From NCBI GenBank assembly GCA_038064515.1, contig JBBTSY010000005.1:50093-114092 (forward strand): DNA of 64,000 nt. The letters are read 5' to 3'. The notes beneath the pieces were generated by a model. That model searched no databases, had not been told where the DNA came from, and worked only from the letters and a program-made list of their open reading frames with translations. This document shows positions 8,060 through 46,612 of the stretch, piece after piece (the first letter of the stretch is position 1; each line of letters starts with the position of its first letter). The DNA comes from Patescibacteria group bacterium. GTDB lineage: Bacteria; Patescibacteriota; Minisyncoccia; 2-02-FULL-40-12; GWA2-44-9. Made by a program: the position numbers and the translations under genes.

Positions 8060-8359
8060 AGGAGGTCTTTTGTTTAGTAGGTTCGTTACGAAATTTTCAG
8101 ATGTGTGACGAGGCAAAACAAAAATTTTGAAGCATAGAAATCTCTGTTGATAAATTTTTGTGAAGCCGCAGTCCACATGTGAAAATTGCAGTAGAAATTT
8201 ACTATACAAAAGACCTCCTCGAATGCTATAGTATCAATGCACTAACTACAAGCCATAAGGTAGAAATATGCCTGCTTTTAGCGAGTATACGGCACCTCAT
8301 GGCGGAATACACAGTATGGAAACATTAAACCTCTCGTCTGGGCCGGGACGGTCGTCCTG

Positions 8360-9055
8360 GTGGTTCTCGGACTTTTCCTGCTCGTCAGTACCAATCATCT
8401 CTTAAATACCGCAACGACCTCGAATACGGTTTCCTTCAGCGGTGAAGGAAAAGTCATAACTAAACCAGATATTGCTACGGTCAGTTTGGCAATCGTAACT
8501 GAAGGAGTAACTTCCAAGGCGGCCCAAGACGCAAACTCCCAGAAATCAAAATCATTAACCGATTTCTTAAAGAAGAGCGGTGTTGAAGACAAAGATATCA
8601 AGACATCTTCATACAACATCAATCCGACCTACACTTATCCTCCATCTGGCACTCCTCGCATTACCGGATATTCCGTCAATCAATCAGTAGGGATAAAAAT
8701 CCGTGATCTTGATAAAGTAAACGACATTCTCGACGGCGTCGTCACTGCTGGCGTAAACCAGGTTAGCGGCTTACAGTTCACCGTTGATGATATTGAAAAA
8801 CTCCGTGCGGAAGCTCGTGAACTGGCAATCAAAGATGCCAAGAAAAAAGCCGATGTACTAGAGGATCAAATTGGCGTCAGTCTTGGTAAAATCGTAAATT
8901 TTTCCGAGAACTTCAGTGACTATCCCACCCCGATCTACTTCGCTAAAGAGCTTTCCGCTGATGGTCGCGGCGGCATGGGCGGCGGCGGACCGTCCATCCC
9001 AGCAGGCGAAAATGAAATAATCATCCAGATACAGATAACTTACCAAATTAAGTAA
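8360..9055 (+). CDS. SIMPL/DUF541-domain periplasmic protein
   Basis: There is an N-terminal TM segment. The remaining sequence (ITGYSVNQSVGIKIRDLDKVNDILD...GLQFTVDDIEKLRAEARELAIKDAKKKADVLEDQIG) matches the SIMPL family pattern. Confidence 0.7.
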   Translation: MVLGLFLLVSTNHLLNTATTSNTVSFSGEGKVITKPDIATVSLAIVTEGVTSKAAQDANSQKSKSLTDFLKKSGVEDKDIKTSSYNINPTYTYPPSGTPRITGYSVNQSVGIKIRDLDKVNDILDGVVTAGVNQVSGLQFTVDDIEKLRAEARELAIKDAKKKADVLEDQIGVSLGKIVNFSENFSDYPTPIYFAKELSADGRGGMGGGGPSIPAGENEIIIQIQITYQIK

Positions 9056-19057: not shown

Positions 19058-22000
19058 CTACAAGGTTGGCTCTGTTGATATTTCTGGGGTTGGTTCTGAA
19101 CTTATCGAAGGAATTGGAGTGATTTCTGGTGTTACACTAATACTCGGTTCAGGAGTTGATTCCGCAACTGGTTCTAGCGTTGGTTCTACTGAAGGTTCTG
19201 GCGTGACTGATGGCGCTGGAGTTGATTCCTGGGTTGATTCAGGAGTCGGTTCTAGCGAAAACTCAGGTGTTGCCGAAGGTGTTGCAGACGGCGCGATAGC
19301 ATCTATCGCTGTGCCCTCCGTAGCTTCTAGCGAAGGACGGGGCGAGAATACCGTCTTAGCGTCTTTGATTGCCAAAGCAATCCAACTGAATTGGATATCA
19401 AACGGTGCAGGTTTGTTGAGTTTCACCGTAAATCCTTTAACATTCTTGTTGGTTACAATGTATCTGATGTCGCTATCAAACAGCAACTGCTCGTCTGCTT
19501 CGCTGGCTGAAGCGGTATTTAAAGATATGGTCGTATTCACAACCGGCTGGTTCAAGTATTCCCTCTCAAATGAAACACTAGCATACGTCGCGCCTTTGGA
19601 AACCACCAAAAATCCTCCGGTATCATTATTGAAGTACGGCCGGCCAAAGAATTCAACATCGCTGTTGAACAGCACCAGGTTGCCTTCAGAACCGATGCGG
19701 TCCACCGTTAAGCCACCGTTGAACACTGCCGAACCCTCAACGCTCAAACCGGCATTAAGAGCAATGTCTTCCCTCGGATTCCACGAGTTGCTGGCCAGAG
19801 CCATTAACTGCTCACCGGTCAAGGCCATCTGGCTGTTGAGCGCATACACGCTATTGGCTAACACGGCTAGCTGATTATCCATTAGCTCTAAAGCTGGGCT
19901 ATCGATCTCGTCAGCAACGATTTTCAAGGCTCTCAATTCATTCAAGTAAGCCAAGCCGACAATACTCAAATTATTTGCCGAAATCCTAGAGGCGATGATT
20001 TCTTTATTAGCAACTATCAGGTCAGTCACGACCTGCGAAGGGATTTCCTGATCCGGATCCTGCTTCAATAGCGCGGTCAGTATGGACTGCGTATCGCCCA
20101 AATCAGACATAAGGCCGGAATTTTCTATTCTGCCGCTGTAGTAGGTGTTATTGATGAATAACAATATGGTACCGATGTTTTTTTGGTCGTTGTAATTTTC
20201 AAGTGCTTGCCCGATAACCCGGCCAGCTTTCGATGCGCGCATGGCTACACCGGGTCGGGTGGCTGAATTAGTAAGATAGTCCCCCACCTTAATTGGACCA
20301 TTCTCGGTAGACACTTTCACGGGCACACGGCCAGCTAAAGCAATTGGCACATGCCCAGGTGGCAAATGTTCCAAGGCCTCAGCACCATAAGCAAATTTTG
20401 TACCAGTAATCAGGGCCGCTGGGTTGGTTGACACTACACCTAAGGGTAGCGAACCAGGCACGGCTCTATTTACATATTGAGAACTAGCCAAATCTGCCGA
20501 AACAATCTCACCGGCAGTAAGCGTTGAATCGGATGTCGGAAACGCTTCGGCATAGTCAACACATCCCGGATTTGGAGCACTTACACCGGTACATAGAGCC
20601 GATCCGCCAGCATGTGAGTTAATGCTTCCGCGAATACCCAGCCGTCCGGCATTACTCATAGAAGCCAAGGTCAAACTGTTAGAATCCTGAACCCAGAGAA
20701 CACCGTGAGGAAGCTGCCTTGATGATGAAGCTAAAACCGTAATGGTTAGGGCGCTATTGCCAGCTGCAAATTCTGATACATTGGAATTAATATCCAGACC
20801 GGGATTAGAAGCCGAGGCAGTAGTATCAACCTGCAAAATATCATCATCTCCGCCAGCATCCTGAATCGTAAATGCTCTAGCGCTATTGCGGAAAATATTG
20901 AAGTCACCTACAGATGCTGATGCATTAGTGGTAAAGGCAACCTTTCCGTCATCAGTAATAGTAAACACCGTAGTACCGGCGTCTTGGATTATAAAATCTC
21001 CGGTCCCCTTAAGGTTTAAATTAAAGTCCAAACCATTTATTGAAATTGAAGCAAAGCCACTAAGTTCCAAACCGGTCAGTTGGGTCGAGGCAGCCGTAAA
21101 TTTCCAGAAACCGGTAATTGTTTCATTGAAAGCACGTGAAGCAGGGCCATTGGTCCAATCTAACCTGACAAATCCTTCAGAAGCAGTATTAGATATATTA
21201 AAGTGATTTGCTTCGAAGGAAATGCTGGTAATTTTTACTTGGGAACCACCGATTAAACCAAAGTCGAGGCCTGAGAATGATGAACCGCCACCAGTGTCAT
21301 CAGTCAGACAAGAGAATTTACCAGTAGTCGAGTTCCAGTTTAAAGTTTGAGTTTCAGTATTACAGTTGGAGCCAATGCTAGAGAAGGCAGAGCCAAACAA
21401 GGCTGAGACTGAGGCGTTACCGACTACTTCAAAGTTAGCGCTAGAAGAAGCTCCCAGGGTGAATGTCTGGAGTTGGGTCCAGGTATTGGCTAGAGATCTT
21501 GAGGCCGGGGCACCAGCATTAGACCAATCTAGGTCAATGACTGATTCGGAAGCAGTGTTGGAAAGAAGGAAGATATTAGATTCAAAGGAAAGCGACCCAA
21601 TATGGCTGAATGTCCCTCCAGTCTCACGGACTGAGATGCCTTTAGGACTGGAGCTGCCGCCACTGTTTTGATCAGCTTCACAATTGAACTTACGGTTAGT
21701 TAGATCATAGGTGACTTTGTTAGCGGTGCCATCACAATCAGAGAAGGTGCCGCCATCAGTGTCTTGGAGATAGAATTGAGAGATAGAGGCATAACCGACG
21801 ACTTCAAAGTTAGATGATGTTGAAGCATTGGTGAAAGTAGCCAGGCCGGTCACACCGAGGGTGGAAGAGAGCGTTGTAGCCCCAGTTACGCCAATAGTAG
21901 AGCCAAATGTCGTCGCTCCGGAGATAGAAGCTGTACCCCCCACTTCTAAGTTGGTGTTAGTCGTACCGCCAGCATTGATACCTAAGCGGGTGTTGCCAGT

Positions 22001-25000
22001 TAATTCAAAGTTAGTAGAGACGGAAACACCGCCATTGAAGGTAGCTAAGCCAGTATTGGTGAAGGTCAGAGCAGCAGTAACGGGACCATTTAAGGCAATG
22101 GCGCCTGTGCCAGTGGTAAAGGTGGAAGCACCAGCTTGGGTAAAGTTACCAGATATGGAGGCAGCACCGCCCACTTCCAGGGAGGTGTCAGTGCTGCCAC
22201 CGGGATTGATGCCTAAACGGAAGTTACCGGTTAATTCAAGGTTTGCCCCGACTGACGCTCCTGCAGAGAATGTTTGTAGTCCAGTGAAGGTGTTGGCTCC
22301 TAAGATGGCTAAGGTACCCGCGGTGGGTAGCGTCACCGATGTGACGCCGCTCACCGTTAATGTGGTAGCAAAGTTGCCCGATATGGTTAGGGTAGAAGCA
22401 GCATTGTTGGCTACACCCGTGCCACCGAAAGCAGGAGTAATAACGCTGCCGTTCCAGGTGCCGGTCGTAATAACACCGGTATTAGGAGTGATAACGAGGC
22501 CATTGTAGCCTGTAGCACCTGTGACAGCGCCACTCAAGGTAACAGCGCCAGAAATGGAAGCCGTACCTCCGATTTCAAGAGTCTGGTTGGTATTAATTAC
22601 GTTGATGCCTAACCTGGTATTGCCAGTTAATTCAAAGTTGGTGGAGACGGAAACACCGCCGGAGAAGGTAGCGAGGCCGTTTGCGGTGAGTCCTGATGTA
22701 GCAGTAATGAGTCCCGAGATCGTCGGTGTTGCCGTCCAAGATGTGGGCGAAATAGTAAGTCCGGAACCTGCAATGGTCGTTCCCGTTGACGCATTACCGA
22801 AGGTAATTGCGCTGTCTCCGGAATAAACTGTCGCTTTCACCGTGCCACCAGCCGCCTCAAACGTGCCTGAAACAGATGCTCTGCCAGTAAGGGAGATGAG
22901 GCCATTGGTCGCATCGAAGGTAATTCTGTTGGCCTGGCCAGAATCCCTGATGTCATTGCCGGATACCTCGATATCGTCGTTGAAGTCGACGAAACCGGTG
23001 GCCAGGTTGAGGCGAGAGGCGCCTGTGGAGTCCTGGATATCATTGCCATTGATGCGAATGTCATCGGAGATAGAGGCTAGGCCTACTACTTCTAAGGCTA
23101 CGGAGAGATTTGATGTGTTCACGCCGATACCGGTGGTGTTGACGAAGAAGTCAGAGGTACCTACTTCGAAGTTCGAAGAGACAGAAGCATTAGCAAGGGT
23201 GGTTTGGCCCGTAACATCGAGGGTAGATGAGAGGGTTGTAGCCCCAGAAACGCCAAGTGTAGAGCCAAATGTCGCCACTCCTGAGATACTCGCAGTGCCG
23301 CCGACTTCTAACCGAGCACTCGTGATTGGGCCCGCATTGATGCCCAAGTTGCCGGTAGTGATCTCAAAGCCGGTGGAAGAAGAAGCACCGCCGGAGAAGG
23401 TGGCAAGACCGGTGGTAGTGAGCGTAGAAGCAAAGGTTGCGTCATCTTGCACATCCAAGGTGCCGGCTGAGTTCAGGGTGAGGTTTCCGCTCGTGGTGCC
23501 GATGGTGGTGGTGTCCAGCGTGATGTTGTCAAAGGTGAATAGGCCGGCATCCGTGATGGTGAGGTAAGTCGTGCCGCCACGCTTCACAATGAAGTCTCCG
23601 GTGGAGTCCAGATCAACCAATAGGCCAGTCGCACCGCCGGAAAGCGATGCCCCAGAGCGGAATTCCCAAAGGGAGGTGATGGTTTCTGCCGCATTGACAT
23701 GCGCAACATTCACCGAAAGCGCCGCATCGTTCACGCTTCCTCCAGAACCTACGGTTAAAGTATCCGAAACCTCGTCATCAGCCCACGGGTTGGCGATGTT
23801 TACCCAGTTGCCCGCAATAGTTTCAGCTTCGGAGAGCGATGCGGGTCCTGCGGCTCCCCAATCTAATCGGACCAGTGCTTCTGTTCCCGAAAAGGAAACG
23901 GCAAATGAACCGCCTTCAAAGGATACGGAAGAAACATTCGTGCCGCTTCCGCTGAATCCCTCGCGTACCTCAATTAAGGCCCCGCCCCCTCCTCCTGCGT
24001 CGTCATCCGTACATGAGAAAAGCCCAGTTTCTCCGCTCCAATTCAATGCTTTGTTGCCGGCACCTGCATCGCAGTCAGTGAGGCCTGCACCGAATAATGC
24101 GGAGACAGATGCTGTGCCAATCTCAAGGGCATTGGCAAACTGGCCAGATGCCGCAGTGAATCTCCAGAGACCGGTAATCTGCTCATTAGCTGCCCGTGAC
24201 GCGGGACCGTTGGTCCAGTCAAGGCGCACAATCGATTCAGTTGAACCTGAAGCAGCCAGCGTAAACATATTACCTTCAAAATTGAGCGTTGTTGCTGCGG
24301 CGAGATTCTGGGTGCCTCCTTCTTCGGTTTTAACGCCTGATCCTCCGCCGCCCCCATCTGCCAGACATGAGAACCGTCCCGTTGACGAGCTCCAATTCAG
24401 AGTTTGGGATTCATCACTGCAATTGGTAAGCCCCGCGCCGAAGAGAGAAGAAGCAGAGGCATAGCCGACCACTTCAAAGTTCAACGATGCAGTAGCGTTG
24501 TTTGATATGAGGATACGACCAGAATCAACGGCCAAGGTGCCGAATTTGCCCGTAGTGGCTTCAAAGAATGATCCGGAGGCGTTCACCAGCGAGAGGTTAT
24601 CCGCAAGCGTCAAGGTTGGGTTTCCGCTCACCCCATTGCCGTTGGAAACATCAATTTTGTTCGTCGTGCCGGTGATTGTCCGGGCGGCGAATGAATTAGA
24701 TCCTGTAACCGTGAGGAGGCCATTCGATCCGCCAGTTCCCGCAAGTGCGGTTAAGGTAGCATCTAATGGCTGAAGTCCGGATACATTAAGCGTATTCGTA
24801 GACCATGAGAGGTTCGTGCCTGCAGTAATTCTCGTTGAAGGCGTATCTCTGAATAATTCCCACGCTGTCTGCGACGCGGTCAGTGGCATAGTAAACCCCG
24901 TATCAGCACCGAATGTATTGCCTGACCATGCAAAACCAGTTCCTGCTGTGATGCGCGTACTTGGAATATCGCGGAATGTTTCCCAGTTGCTTGTTGATGC

Positions 25001-28000
25001 GGTGAGAGGAATGTTAAATCCAGCCATAAGCGTGATGGCATCTCCGGAAAGCGCTAGGCCGGTAGCCGTTACGCTAAGATTCGTCATGCCAGAAATATTC
25101 ACTGAAGCGCATGTAAGGGTATCCCCAATCGTTGTGACGAACTGGTTAGTGCATCCGGTTGGATAGTTCTGCAATCCGGTCCAATTAATAGTGATGGCAT
25201 CAGCAATGGATGCATCGGTGAGAGGCGTACCAAGAGTCAATATTGAGATTGACGCAGTCCCGATTTCAAGCGTATTCGTAAATTGGTTCGATGCGGCAGT
25301 GAATCGCCATGCTCCTGCAATAGTTTGATCAGCCGACCGTGAAGCAGGTCCACCTGAACCCCAATCAAGATTGATTCGCGCTTCGATGGATCCCGAAGCA
25401 GCGAGTGTGAATTTTCCGCCGTCAAAATTTAATATCGTTGTCGTGGAAAGTATCTGCGCACCGCTTTCCTCAGTCTTAAACTCCGCTCCGCCCGCTCCGC
25501 CCGCATCAGCTCCGCATGAGAATCTTCCCGTGGTCGAATTCCATAGAAGATTCTGCGATTCGGCACTGCAATCAGTTGCGGGAAACGCGGAACCAAAGAG
25601 CGCCGACACTGATGCATTATTACGGAACTCCCATGCTCCCGTCACCGTTTCATTGAGCGAGAGTGACGCGCCACCGCCACTGATGGTCGTCCATGTAAGA
25701 ACACCGTTTCCGTCAGTCGACAAAGCTTGATTTGCCGTGCCATCGGCTCCTGGCCATGTATAGCTTACGTTTCCAAGCTTCAGCGCCGCGGGCAACTCCA
25801 GCACGCCGGACGTCGCGGTGATTGCATTTCCATCAATTCGAACGTTATCGACAGTAAGTACCGAACTGCTTAGCCCTACTTGATGGTTATTGCCGGTATA
25901 CTGCAATGGAAACGGAACCCTCTGCTGTAACGACAAGAGCGATCCTTTGATCGCATCGAGTTCTTCTCGGACGCTGTTGGACACAGGAGGAGCGTTTACC
26001 GTAATTGCACTTCCTACATAGCGCCTTATGAGAGTATTTAATTCATTGATCTGACGCTGGGAGAATGTTGCGGATGCCGATGGCGTCGGAGTGCCCGCCG
26101 GAGAAGGAGTGGGTGTCGGCCGACGCCGCCCGAGAGGGAACAGCCGCGGGAGTGCCGCAGTGGTCTGGTTGGATGCTCGCAGGATCGAAGGAGACTTTAT
26201 TGAAGCGATTGGTGCTGGAGCTTTTGATTTTCGAAAAGATGCGAAAAGTGTCGAAAGCGAAGCTTGCTGGGACCAAAAGGTCCGATGGGAAGCATACGTT
26301 TGGTCTGCCAGCGTACCGACCTTTCCTTGGACGATATTCCTGAATGATAGTGCTAAGCGGCCAAAGCCCAACGAGAATTGCTGGGTCTGGGATGGAAGAA
26401 CGGGCCGCGCCAAGGGAGCTGTCTTAAAATGCGTAATGCCTTCGTTCAAAGATCTCCATCCCTCTTCTGCTACTGATTCAAATCCTTGAACCTGCGGACC
26501 CGCAAGAGTTCTTTTGCCAAATGAGTGCGGATCCTTGATGGCGATGCGGGTTTTAGTGGTTCCTCGGTTTGTCCATGCGGTATGAATCTGCCATGCGGTT
26601 CCCCCTAATCCCCGATCAACGGCTTTGACCAGAATGGCCATGCCGCGGTCGATGGGGTTGAGGAAGTAGCCGTTGAATGCTTCAAGCTGTGCGAGAAGCG
26701 AGCCCCGCTCCTTAACCGGCAAAGGCAGAGTCATATCTGGCGTTTTTACTACATACGAGAGAATTCCCAGCTGTTCAGATGCACGGAGAATAGGGGGAGG
26801 AATTGCTGCTGGCCGTGCCGGAGTTCGACGAGGTATAGCAGCGATACCAGCGGTTTTCGATTGCTGTTGGAGAAAAATTTTATGGGCCACATACGTATTA
26901 TCAGCAATAGAACCGATGCGATGAACCAATATATCAGTCGCCCATCCAAGCAGATTTTCAACGGGATTATCTACATTGAGAGAGAATGAGACCTGGCTCG
27001 GCTCTCGGCGCGGCATCTGAGGTCCAGACATGAATGCAATCTGGTTTTTTGCGATACCCTTTCGCATGCCGCCTTCAATATCTTTAACGGCGGTATGTGC
27101 AAAAGATTCAAAATCTCCAACACGAGGATACGCCAATTTTTCCTTTCCAAACATCTGCGGATCTTTGATAGCGATTGGGCGAGGATCGCGGTTTGGTATC
27201 CACGACAATACTTGAGGAATATAATTCGATCCCGTAGCAAGCTCTTGATCGACGGTGCGGACAAGAGCGCTCATCGCACGGTCGATGGGGTTGAGGAAGT
27301 AGCCGTTGAATCCTTCAAGCTGTGCGAGAAGCGGTTTCCATGTATATGCTTGAACCGTTGCACCTTTCGTCAGCGGCAAAGGAATCGGAATGTCCGCTTC
27401 TTGCACGAATGCCATCAGAGGTTCTGCAAATGCTTGTCTCGATCGCTCGAGATCATTTGAAAAATCAGAATGCTTTGCCGGAAGTAATTCAGGAACATGA
27501 GCATTCTGTTTGCTCACCTCGTGAGCGCTGGCACTCCAGAAAATGAAAAGGGCAAGGAGGATAAGCCCCAAACCACGTGGTGATGGTCTCAGGTTTATCC
27601 TACTTGCCCGAATTCGTTCGGCTATGTGGAAAAGAGCTAGTGAAGGAACTGTTATGGGCTTTCGAAGAAGGCCGTTCTCCGGAACCTCTTTAGAGATCTG
27701 GACACTTTCAAACGCGCGTACTCGTCGTTGGATCTCTGTCACTTTTTTATACGCTTCCAACGAACCGCGCGATACGAACCATCGCTTGTCTTCCCGTATG
27801 CTCCTCACCCGTCCTTGGCGCGCTAACCGTCCGATGTGATCAGCATCGTATCCGAACTCCTGCGCCAAGACTGAGGTAGCAGCATAGGTTTCTCCTCCAA
27901 CTTCTCGCACCGACGATTCACTCGTGGGACTCTTCTCGTCTTGGGCGAGCTGGGCGGAAGCGGCGGTTTGCTTTTTGATTGTATCTGATCCCTGCAAGGT

Positions 28001-28003
28001 CAC
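19058..28003 (-). CDS. Giant (2981 aa) single-pass membrane-anchored surface protein with multiple internal repeat families
   Basis: An uninterrupted 8.9-kb ORF. There is a TM helix at about aa 144-160 (GLGLILLALFIFWSAS). Two tandem ~200-aa repeats follow, each with LAQLE(G/A)FNGYFLNPIDR. Next come at least five ~100-aa modules carrying a conserved Cys pair and an LDW(T/S)NGPASR motif, then numerous T/G/S-rich ...TGLATFSGGVSVSTNFELTGNTRLGIN... repeats. The C-terminus is a PT/E-rich linker. Confidence 0.8.
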   Translation of the reverse strand: MTLQGSDTIKKQTAASAQLAQDEKSPTSESSVREVGGETYAATSVLAQEFGYDADHIGRLARQGRVRSIREDKRWFVSRGSLEAYKKVTEIQRRVRAFESVQISKEVPENGLLRKPITVPSLALFHIAERIRASRINLRPSPRGLGLILLALFIFWSASAHEVSKQNAHVPELLPAKHSDFSNDLERSRQAFAEPLMAFVQEADIPIPLPLTKGATVQAYTWKPLLAQLEGFNGYFLNPIDRAMSALVRTVDQELATGSNYIPQVLSWIPNRDPRPIAIKDPQMFGKEKLAYPRVGDFESFAHTAVKDIEGGMRKGIAKNQIAFMSGPQMPRREPSQVSFSLNVDNPVENLLGWATDILVHRIGSIADNTYVAHKIFLQQQSKTAGIAAIPRRTPARPAAIPPPILRASEQLGILSYVVKTPDMTLPLPVKERGSLLAQLEAFNGYFLNPIDRGMAILVKAVDRGLGGTAWQIHTAWTNRGTTKTRIAIKDPHSFGKRTLAGPQVQGFESVAEEGWRSLNEGITHFKTAPLARPVLPSQTQQFSLGFGRLALSFRNIVQGKVGTLADQTYASHRTFWSQQASLSTLFASFRKSKAPAPIASIKSPSILRASNQTTAALPRLFPLGRRRPTPTPSPAGTPTPSASATFSQRQINELNTLIRRYVGSAITVNAPPVSNSVREELDAIKGSLLSLQQRVPFPLQYTGNNHQVGLSSSVLTVDNVRIDGNAITATSGVLELPAALKLGNVSYTWPGADGTANQALSTDGNGVLTWTTISGGGASLSLNETVTGAWEFRNNASVSALFGSAFPATDCSAESQNLLWNSTTGRFSCGADAGGAGGAEFKTEESGAQILSTTTILNFDGGKFTLAASGSIEARINLDWGSGGPASRSADQTIAGAWRFTAASNQFTNTLEIGTASISILTLGTPLTDASIADAITINWTGLQNYPTGCTNQFVTTIGDTLTCASVNISGMTNLSVTATGLALSGDAITLMAGFNIPLTASTSNWETFRDIPSTRITAGTGFAWSGNTFGADTGFTMPLTASQTAWELFRDTPSTRITAGTNLSWSTNTLNVSGLQPLDATLTALAGTGGSNGLLTVTGSNSFAARTITGTTNKIDVSNGNGVSGNPTLTLADNLSLVNASGSFFEATTGKFGTLAVDSGRILISNNATASLNFEVVGYASASSLFGAGLTNCSDESQTLNWSSSTGRFSCLADGGGGGSGVKTEEGGTQNLAAATTLNFEGNMFTLAASGSTESIVRLDWTNGPASRAANEQITGLWRFTAASGQFANALEIGTASVSALFGAGLTDCDAGAGNKALNWSGETGLFSCTDDDAGGGGGALIEVREGFSGSGTNVSSVSFEGGSFAVSFSGTEALVRLDWGAAGPASLSEAETIAGNWVNIANPWADDEVSDTLTVGSGGSVNDAALSVNVAHVNAAETITSLWEFRSGASLSGGATGLLVDLDSTGDFIVKRGGTTYLTITDAGLFTFDNITLDTTTIGTTSGNLTLNSAGTLDVQDDATFASTLTTTGLATFSGGASSSTGFEITTGNLGINAGPITSARLEVGGTASISGVATFGSTLGVSGATTLSSTLDVTGQTTLANASVSSNFEVGTSDFFVNTTGIGVNTSNLSVALEVVGLASISDDIRINGNDIQDSTGASRLNLATGFVDFNDDIEVSGNDIRDSGQANRITFDATNGLISLTGRASVSGTFEAAGGTVKATVYSGDSAITFGNASTGTTIAGSGLTISPTSWTATPTISGLITATSGLTANGLATFSGGVSVSTNFELTGNTRLGINVINTNQTLEIGGTASISGAVTLSGAVTGATGYNGLVITPNTGVITTGTWNGSVITPAFGGTGVANNAASTLTISGNFATTLTVSGVTSVTLPTAGTLAILGANTFTGLQTFSAGASVGANLELTGNFRLGINPGGSTDTSLEVGGAASISGNFTQAGASTFTTGTGAIALNGPVTAALTFTNTGLATFNGGVSVSTNFELTGNTRLGINAGGTTNTNLEVGGTASISGATTFGSTIGVTGATTLSSTLGVTGLATFTNASTSSNFEVVGYASISQFYLQDTDGGTFSDCDGTANKVTYDLTNRKFNCEADQNSGGSSSPKGISVRETGGTFSHIGSLSFESNIFLLSNTASESVIDLDWSNAGAPASRSLANTWTQLQTFTLGASSSANFEVVGNASVSALFGSAFSSIGSNCNTETQTLNWNSTTGKFSCLTDDTGGGSSFSGLDFGLIGGSQVKITSISFEANHFNISNTASEGFVRLDWTNGPASRAFNETITGFWKFTAASTQLTGLELSGFASISINGLDFNLNLKGTGDFIIQDAGTTVFTITDDGKVAFTTNASASVGDFNIFRNSARAFTIQDAGGDDDILQVDTTASASNPGLDINSNVSEFAAGNSALTITVLASSSRQLPHGVLWVQDSNSLTLASMSNAGRLGIRGSINSHAGGSALCTGVSAPNPGCVDYAEAFPTSDSTLTAGEIVSADLASSQYVNRAVPGSLPLGVVSTNPAALITGTKFAYGAEALEHLPPGHVPIALAGRVPVKVSTENGPIKVGDYLTNSATRPGVAMRASKAGRVIGQALENYNDQKNIGTILLFINNTYYSGRIENSGLMSDLGDTQSILTALLKQDPDQEIPSQVVTDLIVANKEIIASRISANNLSIVGLAYLNELRALKIVADEIDSPALELMDNQLAVLANSVYALNSQMALTGEQLMALASNSWNPREDIALNAGLSVEGSAVFNGGLTVDRIGSEGNLVLFNSDVEFFGRPYFNNDTGGFLVVSKGATYASVSFEREYLNQPVVNTTISLNTASASEADEQLLFDSDIRYIVTNKNVKGFTVKLNKPAPFDIQFSWIALAIKDAKTVFSPRPSLEATEGTAIDAIAPSATPSATPEFSLEPTPESTQESTPAPSVTPEPSVEPTLEPVAESTPEPSISVTPEITPIPSISSEPTPEISTEPTL
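26649..26699. repeat. Intragenic near-identical direct repeat, copy 1 (partner at 27277..27333)
   Basis: cgatggggttgaggaagtagccgttgaat(g/c)cttcaagctgtgcgagaagcg occurs twice, ~630 bp apart, inside the giant gene. This matches the tandem protein-domain duplication. Confidence 0.8.
27277..27333. repeat. Intragenic near-identical direct repeat, copy 2
   Basis: The same ~55-bp sequence as at 26649, with 1-2 mismatches. Confidence 0.8.
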
Positions 28004-37049: not shown

Positions 37050-38455
37050 ACAAGCGCTCGTTCGAGGTTCGCCGCCGCTTGCAGGACGGTTCCCTCGTCA
37101 AAAAGTTTACCGATAATTTGAAATCCTACGGGCAGATTGCTTTCTGATCCCATTCCGCACGGAATGGAGATCGCCGGCAAACCGGCAAGGTTAACCGGCA
37201 CCGTATATATATCGGAAAGATACATCGCCAGAGGATCTTCCGATTTCTCACCGGCCTTGAACGCTACGGTCGGAGCAGTGGGACCTACGATCACGTCTAC
37301 ACTCCTGAATGCTTCGTCAAAATCTTTTTTTATCAGCGCCCGGACCTTCTGGGCCTTCAGGTAATAGGCATCATAGTACCCGGAAGAAAGCGCATACGTG
37401 CCGAGCATAATTCGGCGCTTCGGTTCGGCGCCAAAGCCTTCCGCGCGAGATGCCAAGTACGTATCAAGGAGCGCCTCCCCCTTCTGCGACGAATGGCCGT
37501 AACGGATGCCATCAAAGCGAGCAAGATTCGCCGATACTTCAGACGGCATAATAATGTAGTAGACCGCGAGAGCGTACTCTGTATGGGGTAATGATATTTC
37601 ATGAATAGTCGCTCCCGCTTCCCGAAGCAGTTCGATGGAAGTCAGAACCTTCGCTGACACTTCTTTATCTAATCCTCCTCCAAAAAATTCTTTGGGCACT
37701 CCTACGCGCAATCCTTTGATATCTTTTTCTAAATTTATGGCAAAATCAGGCATGTCTCGGGAAACCGTCGTCGAATCAAATATATCATGGCCGGCAATGG
37801 CATTCATAACTAATGCCGCATCGGCCACGGTTTTTGTAATCGGCCCGATCTGATCCAGCGAAGAAGCCATGGCAATCAACCCGTGCCGTGAAACACGGCC
37901 ATATGTCGGTTTTAATCCCACCACGCCACAGAATGCGGCTGGCTGACGAATCGAACCACCGGTATCAGAACCGAGCGCAAAGACACAAAGATCCGCCGCC
38001 ACGGCCGCCGCCGATCCGCCGGAAGAACCGCCTGGGACCCGGGAAACATCCAACGGGTTTTTCACCGTGCCGAAGGCGGAGTTTTCCGTGGACGATCCCA
38101 TGGCAAATTCATCCATGTTTGTTTTTCCCAAAAATGAAACGCCGGCTTTTTTTAATTTCTTAATCGCCGTCGCGTCGTATGCCGAAACATAATTCTCCAG
38201 AATCTTTGATCCGGCGGTGGCAATTTCCCCTTCTATCAGCATGTTGTCCTTAATAGCGCATGGCACTCCCGCTAAATCGCCCTCCCTGGCCGGGTAGGCC
38301 CCATGCTCTGCGAATTTAAAAGTAGAGAGGTATGCGTTCAAATCTTTCTTTTCCTCGATCTTTTTTTGATACTCATCAAAAATTTCCCGTGCTGAAAAAT
38401 CGCCTACGGCGATGCCCTTGCGAGCGGATTCGATAGTGTGTCCGATGTCTGCCAT
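37046..38455 (-). CDS. gatA: Glu-tRNA(Gln)/Asp-tRNA(Asn) amidotransferase subunit A
   Basis: The amidase signature [13 protein letters not shown] is present and the length is 469 aa. Confidence 0.9.
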
Positions 38456-38757
38456 TATTTTCTCAAAACTGGCTTAACTTTTACAAAATGACCTTTGGTA
38501 TCTGGCACCTGACCAATTAACAACTCGTTGAGTTTCTCATCCATGATAAATGAAGGGCGCGACTCATCAGGACGGAGGACATTCACTAAGCCGGTCGTTT
38601 GATAGAGCGGCGCCACCTGTTCCGTATCCACTCGTTTAAGTGTTTCAATGTAATCCAAAATCGAAGAGAGCTCTTTTTTGAACTTTTCTTCTTCCTGACT
38701 CGTCAACTTGATACGCGCCAGCGTGGCGATATGTTGGACTTCCTTATCGGAAAGCAT
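38455..38757 (-). CDS. gatC: Amidotransferase subunit C
   Basis: [40 protein letters not shown]. The start was trimmed to the internal Met. Confidence 0.75.
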
Positions 38758-39772
38758 GATTAGTGATGTTGTTGATTTCCTCCACGATACCATAACTGTT
38801 GCAGTGTTTCAAAACGCCGAGGTATGATTGGAGCGACTGTTTCGGAACTCCAGCTGTGACACTTCTCAAAATCCTCTTTTTTGTCTTCGTCCGCAACGTC
38901 CGGCAGTATGGCCGCACGACATATCCAAGAAAATCAATTCCTTGCCGATAACTTCGTACAATAATCTTCTCGGGGTGCAGGGTAAGCTTAAGCTTATGCT
39001 CAAGAAATTCCCGGAATAACGAAACGAAAATAACTGCTTCATCACGACTCTCGATAAGTATAATGAAGTCGTCGCAATACCGAATGTAACAATGGAGCTT
39101 CAGCGTGTGCTTTGCAAACTGATCCAGTTCATTCAAATATATATTTGCAAAAAGCTGGCTAGTTACATTCCCAAGTGGCAATCCTCTTCTGCTCTCCTTT
39201 TCAAAACTTTCTAAGATGCGCCGCACAAGCCACATCACGTCAGGATCAGCCACTCTTTGTTCCATCAAGCGAAACAGAATTTCGTGATCGATAGAATCAA
39301 AAAACTTCTGTACGTCGCATTTCAGAGCAAAAATGTTTTTGCGATTATTTCTACTGAACTTGCGAGCAAACTCTTCTAACCGCGTAACACCGCGATGGGT
39401 TCCTTTACCCACCCGGCATGCGTAGGAATCAAAAATAAACAAACGGTCAAAGAGTGGGTACAAAACTCTGAAAATGGCCCGATGCAATACCCGATCACGA
39501 ACCGTAGCTTTGTGGATATGCCGCAGTTTTGGATCAGTCACATAAAATGGCGTATACTGACCGTGGGTGTATCGCCTATTCTGTAACTGTTCGTGCAAAC
39601 TAAAGAGTTCGTCTTCTAACGCGAAGGTAAATGCTTGTACATCGTGTCTTGATTGTTTGCATCGTTTGAATTCTTGCCACGCTGATACCAGATTCTCCAG
39701 GCTCGAGATTTGATTAAATAAACTATGTCCCTCATTAAGCCCCCCCCCAAGGATTCCGTTCCCCTCATTCAT
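38744..39772 (-). CDS. Diversity-generating retroelement reverse transcriptase
   Basis: VRDRVLHRAIFRVLYPLFDRLFIFDSYACRVGKGTHRG is the DGR-RT hallmark of the (fxDRVVxHA...SYAxRxGKGTH) type. Fingers/palm motifs include RYCDDFIIL (YxDD). The size is 342 aa. Confidence 0.85.
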   Translation of the reverse strand: MNEGNGILGGGLNEGHSLFNQISSLENLVSAWQEFKRCKQSRHDVQAFTFALEDELFSLHEQLQNRRYTHGQYTPFYVTDPKLRHIHKATVRDRVLHRAIFRVLYPLFDRLFIFDSYACRVGKGTHRGVTRLEEFARKFSRNNRKNIFALKCDVQKFFDSIDHEILFRLMEQRVADPDVMWLVRRILESFEKESRRGLPLGNVTSQLFANIYLNELDQFAKHTLKLHCYIRYCDDFIILIESRDEAVIFVSLFREFLEHKLKLTLHPEKIIVRSYRQGIDFLGYVVRPYCRTLRTKTKKRILRSVTAGVPKQSLQSYLGVLKHCNSYGIVEEINNITNHAFR

Positions 39773-40090
39773 AGTGTTTGTGTATTATATAAGGATATCT
39801 ATCACCTCGGACAGAAGATTCCCAAGCGAGATAAATTCGGTATCTATCGCAAAGTTGAAGATGCCACGCTTGATCTTCTCACGACTCTCATAACAGCTAC
39901 GTTCGAGTCGCGAGACCGCAAACACACTATTCTAGTCTCTGCGCGCATCAATGTGGAAGTATTAAAGTGGCTGGTGCGAATGATATACGAAATCAAAACA
40001 ATTCATTTGAGCCGATATATCGCTCTCGAATCTCAACTTCAGGAAATCTCTAAAATGACAAACGGCTGGATCAAATACCTCCAGCCGTAG
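39725..40090 (+). CDS. Avd-like accessory protein (four-helix-bundle / former '23S rRNA-intervening-sequence protein' family)
   Basis: The family is identified from the motifs YKDIYHLGQKIPKRDKFGIYRKVEDATLDLLTTLITA and RINVEVLKWLVRMIYEI. It is 121 aa long. It is encoded on the strand opposite to the RT and target, and its 5' end overlaps the RT start by ~48 nt. Confidence 0.65.
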   Translation: MSLIKPPPKDSVPLIHSVCVLYKDIYHLGQKIPKRDKFGIYRKVEDATLDLLTTLITATFESRDRKHTILVSARINVEVLKWLVRMIYEIKTIHLSRYIALESQLQEISKMTNGWIKYLQP

Positions 40091-40099
40091 TCATCGAAA

Positions 40100-40224
40100 C
40101 TTCTCACGAGCGCGGATGTTGTCGTTGCAGTTCTCGACACTGTTCCAGTTCACGTTGAGCTTGTCGTTGTCGCTGTTCCAGTTCACGTTCGGGACGTTGC
40201 CGTCCGAGTTCCGCGATCTTTTGC
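40100..40224 (-). repeat. DGR template repeat (TR)
   Basis: A non-coding copy of VR that is Asn-codon (AAC)-rich on the minus strand. It is identical to VR except at ~26 positions, all of which are A on the TR coding strand. Confidence 0.9.
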
Positions 40225-40465
40225 CTGATTCCGTCCATTCACCGGAAACCTTTTTCAGAGTTTCCTGTGTTACCGACTCGTATCGGAAGTTTTCCGAGGC
40301 ATACCTCGTGAGAACCAGACAAGCAGTTTCGGTATATATGGCAAACCGCTATCCCATAGGACCGGTTGTAATAGCCATTCGTAAGTATAAAACAAAAACG
40401 AAGGCCCCAACAGACTGAAAGTCCGCCGGGGCCAGGGAAAGGGAACAAGGGTGAAGGGAGAAGTG

Positions 40466-41227
40466 TTAGGCGGCCTGCTTCGCATCCGCCACCGAAACCA
40501 CCTCACGAGCGCGGATGTAGTCGCTGCAGCGCTCGACACCGCTCCAGCGCACGCGGAGCCTGCCGTGGGCGCTGTCCCAGTCCACGCCCGGGACGCTGCC
40601 GTCCGAGTGCCGCGATCCGGAGCAAAGCGTGTAGTTCTTGATGTCCAGATGGCCGCTCGTCTTGTAGTGGAACCACAGTTCCAGAAGCAGGCGCTCCAAG
40701 AGAGTCATCGTCGTGATGTCCCGCTCGGCGATCTTCTTGGCCGAGAGGTTCTTGAGCTCCTCGTCAGCTTCGACGCGAGGACGGCACCAGATGATGTACG
40801 GAGCATCTTTGACGGTTCGCTCGTCCTTGTCCTTGGGGACGGCCTTGTCCAGGGACTGGTCGGTGTACTTCCATCCACGCAAGCGCTCGACGCACTTGTC
40901 GAATGCCTGCTGGACGGAGATACCGGGAATCACCGCGACGCCCCAGCCGAAGCTGGAACGCACGGGAGGAAGTGAAACATGCGACAAGTCCACGACTACC
41001 CCGAAGACATCCGTGTAGAACTTCGTCCAGTCCGCCAAGAACGCGGCCGTGTCCAGGCCCGAGGCGTAGGTAACGCCGCCGTTGGCCCAGCCGTCATGGC
41101 TGATCTGCTGGGCTTTGTCCACCAGTATGAGCTCGCCGGACATGAAGCGCTTGGCGCGCTCCTGGCCGCCGATCTTGTTCCCAAGGTCCATGACCTGCTT
41201 GAGGGTCAGTCCATCAAAGTCGCTCAT
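40466..41227 (-). CDS. DGR target protein, C-terminal C-type-lectin/FGE-like variable domain
   Basis: 253 aa. The C-terminal LCSGSRHSDGSVPGVDWDSAHGRLRVRWSGVERCSDYIRAREV is encoded by VR. An AAGGAG SD lies 7 nt before the ATG. The gene is GC-rich relative to the rest of the window. Confidence 0.8.
   Translation of the reverse strand: MSDFDGLTLKQVMDLGNKIGGQERAKRFMSGELILVDKAQQISHDGWANGGVTYASGLDTAAFLADWTKFYTDVFGVVVDLSHVSLPPVRSSFGWGVAVIPGISVQQAFDKCVERLRGWKYTDQSLDKAVPKDKDERTVKDAPYIIWCRPRVEADEELKNLSAKKIAERDITTMTLLERLLLELWFHYKTSGHLDIKNYTLCSGSRHSDGSVPGVDWDSAHGRLRVRWSGVERCSDYIRAREVVSVADAKQAA
40499..40623 (-). repeat. DGR variable repeat (VR) at 3' end of target gene
   Basis: A ~125-bp copy of TR with substitutions only at TR-adenine positions. 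It lies within the last ~45 codons of ORF 40466..41227. A GC-rich inverted repeat (ggcggatgcgaagcaggccgcc) lies just 3' of it, an IMH/hairpin-like element. Confidence 0.9.
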
Positions 41228-41332
41228 CGCATACTCCTTCCCGCACTACGCAGGAGAGTTTTGGCCGCACTACGCGGCAGTTAAGGAACTCTGGCAGAAT
41301 TGCCAGTACGAGTAAATTGTACTCTTTCCTAC

Positions 41333-43348
<2,016 letters not shown>

Positions 43349-43477: not shown

Positions 43478-43909
43478 TTACTGGCCGATTTCAAGAGCGC
43501 GACTCACCCCATTGAAGGTGCCAAGTGCTCGAAACTTAAACGTCGTGGAACTCAACGGCCGACAGTCAGCGCTAACATCGACCGGGCTCGCTGAAAGACT
43601 TGCGATGGTAAATGTGGCTCCATTAATCAAAATCGGCCGCGCAATAGCACTAGCAGGCTGATTGCGCGCTTCGTACAGGCATACCTCCGTTGCGGAATCT
43701 GCGGCATAGATAGCGCGGGTAGAATTGCCAGCTTCCGCAATTGATCTCACCTTCGGAATAAAAACACTGGCTAAGGTTAGTGTAATAGCAAGAATACTTG
43801 CGAGGAGGAGGAGAGAAAAGATGATGATGGAACCTTGTTGGGAGTTCTTCATATCAATTACTAAATTCAATGGCATTATCGCGCGATATGACGGTTGTTT
43901 CGAGATCAA
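43478..43909 (-). CDS. Hypothetical membrane protein (possible minor pilin) in the pilus cluster
   Basis: A hydrophobic N-terminal helix. No clean prepilin motif. Confidence 0.35.
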   Translation of the reverse strand: MISKQPSYRAIMPLNLVIDMKNSQQGSIIIFSLLLLASILAITLTLASVFIPKVRSIAEAGNSTRAIYAADSATEVCLYEARNQPASAIARPILINGATFTIASLSASPVDVSADCRPLSSTTFKFRALGTFNGVSRALEIGQ

Positions 43910-44417
43910 ATACCAGCGTATCCTCGGGACGAGTTGCCCGACTACTCGCTTGCATGATAATCCCCACCCGAGCCTGCTTTTGATCTCCCACGGTAGCAGT
44001 CACGGTCGTGCCAAGGACACAGAAATTAAGACGGCTAAAATTAACATCCGCGGAGGTGATAGTCGTAACCGTTCCTCCGGCTTGGCGCTGGATCAGTCCG
44101 CCGGACGTCGAATAAATCACCGTGCCGTTCACGGGGTGTACGATAGTGAGCGTTGTACGATCGCAAAGAGGAGCATCCTGATTGTCAATCTTGCTCACCC
44201 GGATTTCGCGTGCCATAAGCTCGAGGGCAAACAATGTATTCTCCTGGACTTTTTGCGCTCCCGCGCCGCGACGCTGAAGGGCAAGAATCTGGGTGAAAAT
44301 ACCGCCGATGGCAATTACGATCATCGAGAACACAAATACTGATATCAGAACCTCAATGAGGCTGAACCCGTGTTGATCATTCTTTAATTTATGGCTATTA
44401 AATAGTCTCATTTCCAA
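43854..44417 (-). CDS. Prepilin-type N-terminal domain protein (minor pilin/pseudopilin)
   Basis: GFSLIEVLISVFVFSMIVIA is a class III signal with Glu at +5. Confidence 0.65.
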   Translation of the reverse strand: MEMRLFNSHKLKNDQHGFSLIEVLISVFVFSMIVIAIGGIFTQILALQRRGAGAQKVQENTLFALELMAREIRVSKIDNQDAPLCDRTTLTIVHPVNGTVIYSTSGGLIQRQAGGTVTTITSADVNFSRLNFCVLGTTVTATVGDQKQARVGIIMQASSRATRPEDTLVFDLETTVISRDNAIEFSN

Positions 44418-44959
44418 TCAAATAAATGCGATTCCACTTTAAAACTCCGGCTTCTATTTCTTTCTGTCCATAGAATTTCCGAAGTTATCATTAGTTCAAC
44501 GCTGGATATTTTCTGAATACTCACTTTTCTTTTATAAATGGTTTGAACTGAAGAGCTTCCCGGGTTGATGCGGTATTTCCCTTGTATTCCGCGATAAAGA
44601 AAACGGTCTTGATAGATAGAAAATGGTGGAATTGAATCCCATTGCAGTTCATAGTCGCCGTCGGCAAGATCGGTATCAAAAGCAGAACCGACGAACCAAT
44701 TTGAATCACGAGTCGCCCGTATCACCTCAATTCCCTCCTGGGCCAATCCCGCCGCAATAACATTATTTCTTATGGAATAGGCGATACCTACCGATGAGGT
44801 TGAAAGCGCATACGCCGGCACGATGGCGACGGAAAGTATCGTCAGCGCAACTAGCGCTTCAACAAGCGTAAACCCGTTAGAGTCGAAGCACATATTTTTG
44901 TGAGCTCGATTTTGGCGAATAAATCCTCGGTTATTGCATTGGTTATTCATTATGGGCAC
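44408..44959 (-). CDS. Prepilin-type N-terminal domain protein (minor pilin)
   Basis: GFTLVEALVALTILSVAIV. Confidence 0.65.
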   Translation of the reverse strand: MPIMNNQCNNRGFIRQNRAHKNMCFDSNGFTLVEALVALTILSVAIVPAYALSTSSVGIAYSIRNNVIAAGLAQEGIEVIRATRDSNWFVGSAFDTDLADGDYELQWDSIPPFSIYQDRFLYRGIQGKYRINPGSSSVQTIYKRKVSIQKISSVELMITSEILWTERNRSRSFKVESHLFDWK

Positions 44960-45501
44960 GTAGCGCCTGTTGCCGTATCAATCCGGCTCGAGGGATAAAC
45001 ACAAATAATTCGGCAGCTTCCCGGGCTGGTGGCGCAATCGGCGCCGGTACGACGAATAACGATCTGGACTGGCGGCGTACTTAACCCGGCAATATTATTG
45101 ATAAAGGTCGCCGGATCGGGCGGCTCAAAAAAAATATCGGAAAATGAACTGCGAAATTCCACGCCTTGATCGCGAATGGTGACAGTACGAGCTATGGTAT
45201 CAGTCACTTCGTAATTTCGATTATAGGTCGAGCAGGCATTTGACGCAGTAGGACTCGTGTATATCTTAAATGTGGTAGCGTTAACATAGGACACGCCGTA
45301 CCCGCACCGTAAGGTACTATTGTATGTCGCTGAAGTTATTGCTTTGGTCTGCGTATCGCGGATATCCGCTACCACGAGATTCATCGTATGATCAAGGTTA
45401 AGTTTTGTTTCAGAGAAATTGACCATCAAAAAGCCGGTGATAACGATGGTAATTGAGGCCACCACCAATACTTCGATGAGCGTAAACCCGCTATTTCGCA
45501 T
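44950..45501 (-). CDS. Prepilin-type N-terminal domain protein (minor pilin)
   Basis: MRNSGFTLIEVLVVASITIVI. Confidence 0.65.
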   Translation of the reverse strand: MRNSGFTLIEVLVVASITIVITGFLMVNFSETKLNLDHTMNLVVADIRDTQTKAITSATYNSTLRCGYGVSYVNATTFKIYTSPTASNACSTYNRNYEVTDTIARTVTIRDQGVEFRSSFSDIFFEPPDPATFINNIAGLSTPPVQIVIRRTGADCATSPGSCRIICVYPSSRIDTATGATCP

Positions 45502-45894
45502 TTAGAAAATTTTAACCGTTATGACATCCCCGGAGCGCAAAGGAATAGAATGAATTTTATGGCCATCGATAAGGTTTGAGTTTATAAAAAACCGAATAGT
45601 GTCTCCTGCATCGTGGCCATCAAGTTGCGTAATGATGGTTGCATCACGAACCTCATCAATACTAAATGAAAGCGGAATATTGCCGGCGCGCGCTGAAGCG
45701 TTGAGCGCATCGAGAACAACCATGTCCTCGACAACCTCACCCTGGAAAATCCGTTCTTGATCAGATGATAGAATAATAAGTTGAGCTTCGGCGGATTGGG
45801 ATCTGCTCGTAAGGAACATCGTAGCCATCAAAGCAACAACAACGATGACTTGCATCGGGGTATTAGAAGTACCAGCGAAATGTTTGGATTTCAT
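45502..45894 (-). CDS. Hypothetical secreted protein in the pilus cluster
   Basis: Signal-like N-terminus. Confidence 0.35.
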   Translation of the reverse strand: MKSKHFAGTSNTPMQVIVVVALMATMFLTSRSQSAEAQLIILSSDQERIFQGEVVEDMVVLDALNASARAGNIPLSFSIDEVRDATIITQLDGHDAGDTIRFFINSNLIDGHKIHSIPLRSGDVITVKIF

Positions 45895-46612
45895 TGAAAA
45901 AAATAATATAGACGACGGATACGCCTGCCAGGAATGACCCGAACGGCAGAGCGGACTTTCCCGTAGCTTTGCCTGCCGCTATGAACGCGATGCCGGTAGC
46001 GGCCGCCAGCCAAATGGAAGCGATGGCTGTTAAAACTCCGAACGGATAGCCAAACGCCACGCCAACAAGAAACATGAGCTTAACATCTCCGAAACCGACC
46101 CATCGACCTCGCGAAACTACATATAGTATAGCAAACAGCGCGCTAAGCAGTAAACCGGTTGCCAGTGAAGAAGGCAGAAGACTTTTATTCAAAAAAACTA
46201 AATAACCCACGGTGATGACGGACATGATCGCGATAATAACATCGGGTAAAATAAGATGGATCAGATCAAATAATAGCAACGCGAGAAAGCCGATAACAAG
46301 CATTGCAAACCACAGTGTATGAGGCGAAAGATCAAAACCATATTGGAAAAAGAACGCTACCAGAATTCCAGCGGCCACAAGCTCTACGATCGGGTACTGC
46401 CAGGAAATCTTAGCGCCACATGATCGGCATCGGCCACGTAAAACAATAAAGCTTAAAAGCGGCACCAGGTCATACCAGGCCAATCGCGCATTGCATAATG
46501 GGCAGTGCGATCGCCCAAACAACATTCCGTCCTCTTTCCCCCAGCGCGAGATGACAACATTAAAAAAACTGCCTACGCATAATCCTAAGAGTGCCATAAG
46601 TGCATACAACAT
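45863..46612 (-). CDS. pilD: Prepilin peptidase (A24 family)
   Basis: The N-terminal CxxC...CxxC zinc knuckle (CPLCNARL...CRSCGAKI) and the polytopic membrane body fit the family. Confidence 0.8.
   Translation of the reverse strand: MLYALMALLGLCVGSFFNVVISRWGKEDGMLFGRSHCPLCNARLAWYDLVPLLSFIVLRGRCRSCGAKISWQYPIVELVAAGILVAFFFQYGFDLSPHTLWFAMLVIGFLALLLFDLIHLILPDVIIAIMSVITVGYLVFLNKSLLPSSLATGLLLSALFAILYVVSRGRWVGFGDVKLMFLVGVAFGYPFGVLTAIASIWLAAATGIAFIAAGKATGKSALPFGSFLAGVSVVYIIFFNEIQTFRWYF

Follow-up and report, generated by a model that had tools for sequence, protein, structure and literature searches.

Layout of the locus

Within a 64,000-nucleotide stretch of the genome of a Patescibacteria group bacterium (contig JBBTSY010000005.1, positions 50,093 to 114,092; hereafter the window), we analyzed a diversity-generating retroelement (DGR) that is flanked, by Pfam search, by gatC and ligA. 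The element comprises, in order, a target gene that ends in the variable repeat (VR), a putative DGR RNA (5' scaffold, template repeat (TR) and 3' hairpin), an inverted avd gene and a reverse transcriptase (RT) gene. Its genes and repeats are as follows:

40466..41227, minus strand: target gene, 253 amino acids (aa); helical N-terminal segment, then a formylglycine-generating-enzyme (FGE)/C-type-lectin-like domain ending in VR
40499..40621, minus strand: VR (core 40502..40617), the C-terminal ~40 codons of the target
40100..40222, minus strand: TR, non-coding, with 12 in-frame AAC codons and 39 adenines in VR-aligned codons
39725..40090, plus strand: avd, 121 aa
38744..39772, minus strand: DGR RT, 342 aa; RVT_1 at 88.7 bits; motifs LGNVTSQLFANIYL and YCDD

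An initial annotation, made from the sequence alone, had proposed a complete target(VR)-TR-avd-RT element between gatC and ligA, with the target and RT open reading frames (ORFs) at the positions listed here. We recovered both ORFs, both flanking genes, the parts and their order; what that annotation had missed is that avd has plus-strand orientation, with RT, TR and target all on the minus strand. An avd between TR and RT, on the opposite strand and in a Patescibacteria host, corresponds to the B3 layout (TR-(avd)-RT), which is found in 90% of the candidate phyla radiation (CPR) DGR set (Wu et al. 2018, NAR 46:11).

We read the element, with a probability of roughly 0.93, as a complete and recently active CPR-typical B3 DGR between ligA and gatC. 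Its parts are observed directly, namely an adenine-only TR/VR pair, an RT resembling that of Bordetella phage (bRT), Avd and a C-type-lectin/FGE-like target, which together support the DGR interpretation that had been put forward; also observed are VR differences among near-identical genomes that are restricted to TR-adenine sites. Because the B3 layout is already known as CPR-typical, the window holds an ordinary CPR DGR, and our analysis suggests that what is apparently undescribed are the RNA scaffold upstream of TR, a poly-G tract shared by avd and RT, and GC-rich targets. No description of the 5' RNA domain as a DGR scaffold, of the poly-G tract, of a CTT repeat that follows the target or of the target's bias in GC content at third codon positions (GC3) was found in the searchable literature.

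Adenine-specific differences between TR and VR

TR and VR align without gaps at an offset of +399, with 20 mismatches in the core (40103..40218 vs. 40502..40617) and 26 when the alignment is widened to 40100..40222 vs. 40499..40621. All of these mismatches fall on TR adenines (26/26; core 20/20), in a TR with 42 A in 123 nucleotides (nt) (hypergeometric P = 5e-16), and all TR/VR changes lie at codon positions 1 or 2 of the target frame. Each mismatch is a T on the plus strand of the lower copy, and since all are thus minus-strand adenines there, the lower copy is TR and the sense strand is minus. The count is best given as 24-26, because the outermost adenines (40221-40222) sit in an RNA helix abutting TR and are maybe not template. 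The initial annotation had described a segment at 40100 repeated at 40499, with ~26 differences, all at plus-strand T of an AAC-rich and non-coding TR; each of these statements holds, and no mismatch was seen outside the TR adenines. When the window was searched for further VRs (TR with A to N) and target paralogues (tblastn), one VR and one target only were found.

At the 3' end of the repeats, a GC-rich ATCCGCGCTCGTGAG is identical in TR and VR and is followed by divergence, as at an initiation of mutagenic homing (IMH) boundary: TR continues AAGTTTCGAT and VR continues GTGGTTTCGG, with a 1-nt length difference (in a longer view of the end of identity, AAGTTTCG in TR and GTGGTTTCG in VR). 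TR is 1 nt shorter than VR directly past the shared GAG (40096..40103 vs. 40495..40503), and the final repeat bases are therefore not transferable without a frameshift. The same shortening was seen in L005, L079, L062 and L019, four of the ~160 related loci (IDs L001 to L160) whose survey is described below.

Reverse transcriptase, Avd and target proteins

The best match of RT in the PDB is Bordetella phage bRT (8ub7, E = 8e-38), followed by group-II-intron-type RTs, some deposited as 'Retron-type reverse transcriptase' (E = 1e-22 to 1e-20; 5e-22 for the next class), and RT carries both LGNVTSQ and YCDD, such that the assignment of this ORF as a DGR RT stands. The [ILV]GxxxSQ motif, which replaces an intron-type motif, is diagnostic of DGR RTs. 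In NCBIfam, RT has only sub-threshold matches (group II, Drt and retron RTs). Avd matches Pfam bAvd at 50.3 bits, above the cut-off of 40; Avd is found in most DGRs, not all.

A structural model of the target gave a confident FGE/C-type-lectin fold preceded by a ~55-residue helical N-terminus, with VR at the C-terminus of the lectin-like fold, in line with the C-terminus that had been proposed. The target has no match in Pfam or NCBIfam, and its exact protein is deposited at NCBI as MEK7589315.1, a 'hypothetical protein'; among its 487 homologs, all those with a source name are from Patescibacteria. The initial annotation had also given the target no signal peptide, a strong Shine-Dalgarno sequence and a GC content above that of its neighbours, and our results agree on all three: no hydrophobic segment was found (maximum KD19, the 19-residue Kyte-Doolittle score, 1.03), AAGGAG lies 7 nt before the ATG, and GC is 62% vs. 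a window mean of 48%.

We also considered whether the repeats might be an ordinary segmental duplication of a gene 3' end beside an unrelated retron- or group-II-type RT, a reading favored by the top NCBIfam match of RT, a group II intron RT/maturase (151 bits, cut-off 300). Such a duplication is scarcely credible in view of the adenine-only mismatches, a TR that is AAC-rich in the VR frame, the adjacent Avd, an RT nearer to bRT than to any intron or retron RT, the lack of any detected intron or retron RNA family, and the conservation of the cassette in ~90 loci.

Recent activity in near-identical genomes

Contig CAYHYI010000003.1 (L001) is syntenic with the window and 98.8% identical to it over 7.1 kb. 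Of the 89 differences between the two, 21 are in VR (40516..40609, 94 nt), and all 21 are at TR-A sites (21/21), with zero differences in TR, the TR-VR spacer and avd and one in RT. Recent activity follows from this contrast, as VR changed at 21 A-sites while TR, avd and spacer stayed unchanged at 98.8% overall identity.

Between ~40750 and ~38230, L082 (JBBTTX010000067.1) has the sequence of the window, including TR, avd, RT and gatC, apart from carrying the L001 VR allele, and upstream of ~40750, in the 5' two-thirds of the target, its identity drops to only 67-88%. Either the target gene recombined near ~40750, or the end of this contig is chimeric.

A fossil DGR, in which repeats and genes persist and mutagenic retrohoming has ended, would fit the small number of VR alleles seen, the decayed-looking relatives in which target and RNA domain persist but RT and avd are missing within 6 kb (L015, L034 and L011), and the many relatives whose RT and avd are out of frame at the poly-G tract. 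The window's own RT and avd are however intact and in frame across G9, and the 21 A-site changes in VR beside an unchanged TR, avd and spacer argue for retrohoming that continued until recently; we hold the fossil reading to be very improbable.

Conservation of the cassette across related loci

The ~160 related loci were gathered in two sets. For the first, GTDB genomes were searched for the target family, which gave 80 loci, nearly all from Patescibacteria, of which ~29 contain the full cassette of target, 218-325-nt spacer, TR, opposite-strand avd and RT, with TR/VR mismatches that are A-only or nearly so. For the second, an independent metagenome scan with RT gave 80 more loci, and avd was found in 59 of these RT-anchored loci, on the strand opposite RT in 59/59; it is likewise inverted wherever found in the first set.

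Some loci depart from the full cassette. L015, L034, L011 and L054 have a target and a weaker 5' RNA domain with no intact RT and no avd in their flanks (the RT remnant of L054 is a 36-aa fragment only), and may be decayed cassettes. In L100, L101, L104, L113, L121 and L129, RT comes next after the RNA domain and TR, with no avd between and 110-195 nt from the RNA end to the RT start.

A structured RNA domain upstream of TR

The spacer between target and TR contains, in order, the target terminator, a -10-like box and ~155 nt that can be aligned across loci. We describe the latter as the structured 5' domain of the DGR RNA:

40384..40389, minus strand: -10-like box TATACT, 6 nt upstream of the first conserved DGR RNA base; a consensus match only
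40221..40377, minus strand: structured 5' domain of the DGR RNA, ~155 nt, helices H1-H5
40377..40339, minus strand: H1
40330..40325, minus strand: primer-like strand GAAACU, then GC, between H1 and H2
40322..40312, minus strand: H2 5' strand, pairing with the H2 3' strand
40308..40295, minus strand: stem-loop H3, then an A-run
40286..40273, minus strand: H4
40265..40244, minus strand: H5
40232..40221, minus strand: H2 3' strand, abutting the TR 5' end
40096..40103, minus strand: TR 3' end GAAGUUUC, complementary to GAAACU(G)C of the 5' domain; proposed template:primer duplex
40062..40088, minus strand: stem-loop (9 bp) and U-rich tail 3' of TR, inside the last avd codons; fold z = -6.2

RNAalifold returned two helices with compensatory changes in 18/25 pairs. 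With all five helices written in, 88.7% of cells are paired, vs. 76% when shuffled and 34-51% when partners are slid, and double (compensatory) changes occur in 29/38 pairs, a level that 0/500 shuffles reach; H4 is visible by eye and poorly aligned (38-53% paired). For the window sequence alone, the minimum free energy fold gives the same helices (z = -3.3). A TAnAAT-like box lies at the place matching the window's -10-like box in related loci, and a hairpin with a T-run lies between TR and the avd stop in most of them; the window's own stem-loop at this place likely ends the DGR RNA, binds Avd, or both.

A covariance model built from 28 loci (R1) scores 140.6 bits at 40206..40377 on the minus strand, its sole match in the window. 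In addition, R1 detects the domain in 13 untrained loci of the GTDB set and in 43 RT-anchored metagenome loci (37/55 of those with enough upstream sequence), in the RT-anchored loci always on the RT strand and 420-530 nt ahead of the RT start. Since the domain is present in many loci without a homolog of the window target family, and in six without avd, it belongs to the TR/RT module and not to the target. An Rfam scan of 38400..41500 (E <= 1) matched no family, including no curated RT-associated motif.

A candidate priming duplex within the RNA

A near-invariant GAAACU(R)C between H1 and H2 complements G(W)AGUUUC at the TR 3' end. Positions 1-6 of this candidate duplex are canonical in 26-36 of 36 loci, the weakest being position 3 (26 A-U and 1 C-G), and at position 7, 26 loci have G.A and 7 have A-U. 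Where the primer strand deviates, the TR 3' end deviates to match in the following loci:

L008: primer strand GACACU, TR 3' end AGUGUC
L042: primer strand GAAGUU, TR 3' end AAUUUC
L125: primer strand GAAAUU, TR 3' end AAUUUC
L116: primer strand AAAACU, TR 3' end AGUUUU
L106: primer strand AAGACU, TR 3' end AGUCUU
L123: primer strand GAUACU, TR 3' end AGUAUC
L090: primer strand AGCACU, TR 3' end AGUGCU

In the RT-anchored set, 5/22 variant primer strands have an exact complement in place, vs. ~0.55 expected from the other loci (Poisson P ~2e-4, our own arithmetic).

Exactly two nucleotides separate the primer strand from the H2 5' strand, and past H2 come stem-loop H3 and an A-rich run. In the Bordetella phage BPP-1 DGR, primer strand Sp47-56 of the spacer RNA (Sp) pairs with TR117-129; 2 nt on, Sp59-70 pairs just upstream of TR (the 'cPRT stop'), and a short stem-loop and adenosines follow (Handa et al., bioRxiv 10.1101/2023.10.23.563531). 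We infer the scaffold role of the upstream domain from covariation and from this analogy.

The functional scaffold might instead lie 3' of TR as in BPP-1, antisense to avd, with the 5' domain serving as a TR leader or an element of the target 3' untranslated region (UTR). A strong hairpin does follow TR in the window, and 207/278 DGRs, CPR included, were reported with stem-loops downstream of TR and up/downstream duplexes (bioRxiv 10.1101/2023.10.23.563531), but the conservation screen in that work covered only the 40 nt before TR and the 100 nt after it. A gap of merely 5 nt (40091-40095) lies between the TR 3' block and the avd stop, in place of a 3' spacer of the BPP-1 type, and RNA beyond that stop is antisense to avd; the conserved, covarying domain is 5' of TR. 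Loci with another target family or without avd still have this domain alongside RT and TR; the 3' strand of its H2 lies directly against TR, GAAACU and the TR 3' end vary together, and the order of its putative elements reproduces BPP-1 Sp47-81. We consider a 3' scaffold unlikely.

A poly-G tract shared by avd and RT

The avd and RT ORFs overlap head to head by 48 nt (39725..39772), and this overlap contains a homopolymer:

39740..39748: C9 tract on the plus strand, G9 on the minus strand

A G7-12 tract occurs at the same spot in 70/93 related loci, in genomes of 30-50% GC, with lengths of 7 (5 loci), 8 (6), 9 (30), 10 (20), 11 (7) and 12 (2). The frame is open through the tract in 65/69 loci for RT and 69/69 for avd, and there are almost no start codons between the tract and the conserved protein body across loci; the tract thus lies in the 5' coding region and its length sets the reading frame, as in homopolymer contingency loci. 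Read on the other strand, the ATG of RT is a conserved, in-frame His codon of avd, and the avd ATG likewise falls on such a codon of RT, so that RT and avd are in frame at the same tract lengths; the agreement of their frame offsets is imposed by this arrangement and is for that reason not independent evidence. As assembled, only ~30% of loci are in frame, with ~10/57 needing +1 nt and 22-26 needing -1 or +2 (frame status of L005 and L008 checked by hand). Beyond the trio of window, L001 and L082, all of which are G9 and in frame, we found no near-identical loci differing in poly-G length.

Possible readings of the tract are phase variation at the DNA level, transcriptional or ribosomal slippage, or homopolymer miscalls in assembly. 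We rejected the poly-G as a Shine-Dalgarno mimic for a downstream ATG, as that ATG is out of the RT frame in some loci and absent in others. A TAnAAT-like box lies 13-14 nt ahead of the RT ATG in 20 loci for which the junction was displayed. In near-identical L001, the public RT gene call (7687..8484) is 265 aa long vs. 342 aa here, and gene callers seem to shorten RT to avoid the avd overlap. A literature search turned up no paper linking DGRs with homopolymers.

A proposed mechanism and its weak points

In the mechanism that we propose, a ~330-nt RNA would be transcribed from the -10 box at 40384-40389 and end at the hairpin at 40062-40088, with its structured 5' domain bound by RT and Avd. 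GAAACU (40330-40325) would pair with AGUUUC at the TR 3' end (40101-40096) and prime cDNA synthesis in cis; RT would then copy TR, placing random bases opposite its 39 adenines (a space of ~10^23 DNA and ~10^22 protein variants over 24 codons), until synthesis halts at H2, which abuts the TR 5' end. VR would be replaced by this cDNA, with the identical GC-rich ATCCGCGCTCGTGAG as an IMH-like boundary, and the outcome would be a hypervariable ligand-binding face on a protein without a signal peptide. At the level of the clade, we advance, at slightly less than even odds, that CPR B3 DGRs use a circularly permuted RNA and that slippage of the shared G7-12/C7-12 tract (in DNA, in RNA or at the ribosome) switches or throttles RT and Avd together.

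Several observations weigh against our account of the element and its RNA. Besides the group II intron match noted above, no DGR-specific RT model was returned by the libraries searched (Pfam and NCBIfam), and Avd falls below the cut-off of NCBIfam DivGenRetAVD (62 bits, E = 5e-17; cut-off 80). The VR alleles seen are only two, across three assemblies. Support for the candidate primer duplex comes from two blocks that hardly vary and from ~7 compensated variants, and uncompensated mismatches occur at position 3 in several loci. Promoter and ends of the DGR RNA are placed by consensus matches only. Finally, the 1-nt shortening of TR is consistent with initiation upstream of the final repeat bases, and is no proof of it.

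Composition and surroundings of the target gene

The regulatory and repeat features around the target are as follows:

41316..41344, minus strand: promoter-like site TTGACG-17-TACAAT; a consensus match only
41242..41275, minus strand: direct repeat GCGTAGTGCG x2, spaced by 14 nt (24-nt period), downstream of the promoter-like site and ahead of the Shine-Dalgarno sequence
within 41225..41241, minus strand: Shine-Dalgarno sequence AAGGAG
40435..40465, minus strand: pyrimidine CTT-repeat CACTTCTCCCTTCACCCTTGTTCCCTTTCCC, directly past the target stop codon; four ~8-nt units
40403..40433, minus strand: terminator-like hairpin of the target, 14 pairs, then TTCGTTTTTG

The direct repeat could be an operator or a 5'-UTR structure. 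The CTT-repeat after the stop codon is kept in target homologs both with and without RT, TR, avd and RNA domain within 6 kb, and was seen also in L007, L014, L018, L021, L043, L064, L077 and others; speculatively, it marks recipient sites, perhaps for diversification in trans. Several target paralogues per genome, tandem or scattered and mostly without a nearby RT, were observed, such as at L038, L024 and L046, and one metagenome-assembled genome holds L011, L018, L031 and L070.

Target GC3 is 0.84, vs. 0.49 +/- 0.10 for the other long ORFs of the window. Across 65 loci, GC3 is 17.5 points higher in the non-VR part of the target than in its neighbours, and GC at the first two codon positions (GC1+2) only 2.4 points higher, and RT and avd have lower GC than their surroundings. 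We rejected recent horizontal transfer as the cause of the target's high GC, as the excess extends over the whole family, follows host GC and resides at third positions; candidate causes of the GC3 excess are expression-linked codon bias and GC-biased gene conversion among paralogues.

Elsewhere in the window, the region beyond ligA (43478..46612, L001 1..3750) contains a cluster of prepilin-like (N_methyl) ORFs and an A24 prepilin peptidase, with the Pfam marks made on the L001 copy, and a 2981-aa ORF lies at 19058..28003 on the minus strand.

Implications

The window DGR itself adds one more CPR example, with a target annotated merely as hypothetical. The proposed RNA permutation, the shared poly-G tract and the GC3 and CTT traits are clade-wide, and merit specialist attention. 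If the upstream scaffold is real, screens for Sp downstream of TR miss the correct place for most known DGR diversity, and the GAAACU:AGUUUC duplex offers a directly testable priming site. A shared homopolymer gate, if true, would be the first proposed genetic on/off control of DGR hypermutation, and would also account for gene callers truncating or missing RT and avd. The GC3 excess and the CTT tag provide handles to find DGR targets far from any RT.

Comparison with known systems

With the B3 DGRs of CPR and DPANN (Wu et al. 2018), the window element shares gene order, inverted avd, CPR host, a C-terminal VR in a target without a Pfam domain, the A-to-N pattern and an AAC-rich TR. There is no difference in kind, and the window target family is annotated solely as hypothetical.

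With the BPP-1 DGR (mtd-avd-TR-Sp-brt), it shares a bRT-homologous RT, Avd, a target of C-type-lectin fold and adenine-specific mutagenesis; its putative scaffold would in addition have, by comparison with Sp47-81 in the cryo-EM ribonucleoprotein, the element order of primer strand, 2 nt, stop strand, stem-loop and A-run. Unlike in BPP-1, where these elements lie in Sp 3' of TR, the putative window scaffold is wholly 5' of TR, in effect a circular permutation. In BPP-1 the stop duplex has the avd 3' end as its partner, whereas the window avd is on the other strand, with its 3' end facing TR. The window element is moreover chromosomal in a CPR bacterium and has a target without an export signal, whereas the BPP-1 DGR resides in a phage tail-fibre locus.

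Compared with the DGR variable proteins TvpA (Treponema, 2y3c) and TaqVP (Thermus, 5vf4), the window target is only 8-10% identical and much smaller, has a ~55-residue helical N-terminus, and lacks a Pfam FGE-sulfatase or DUF1566 match.

Finally, the poly-G tract shares with the poly-G/C contingency loci of Neisseria and Campylobacter a G/C run of 7-12 in the 5' coding region that sets the frame and varies in length between loci. Unlike in those loci, a single tract is here common to two divergent overlapping genes, and would switch both.

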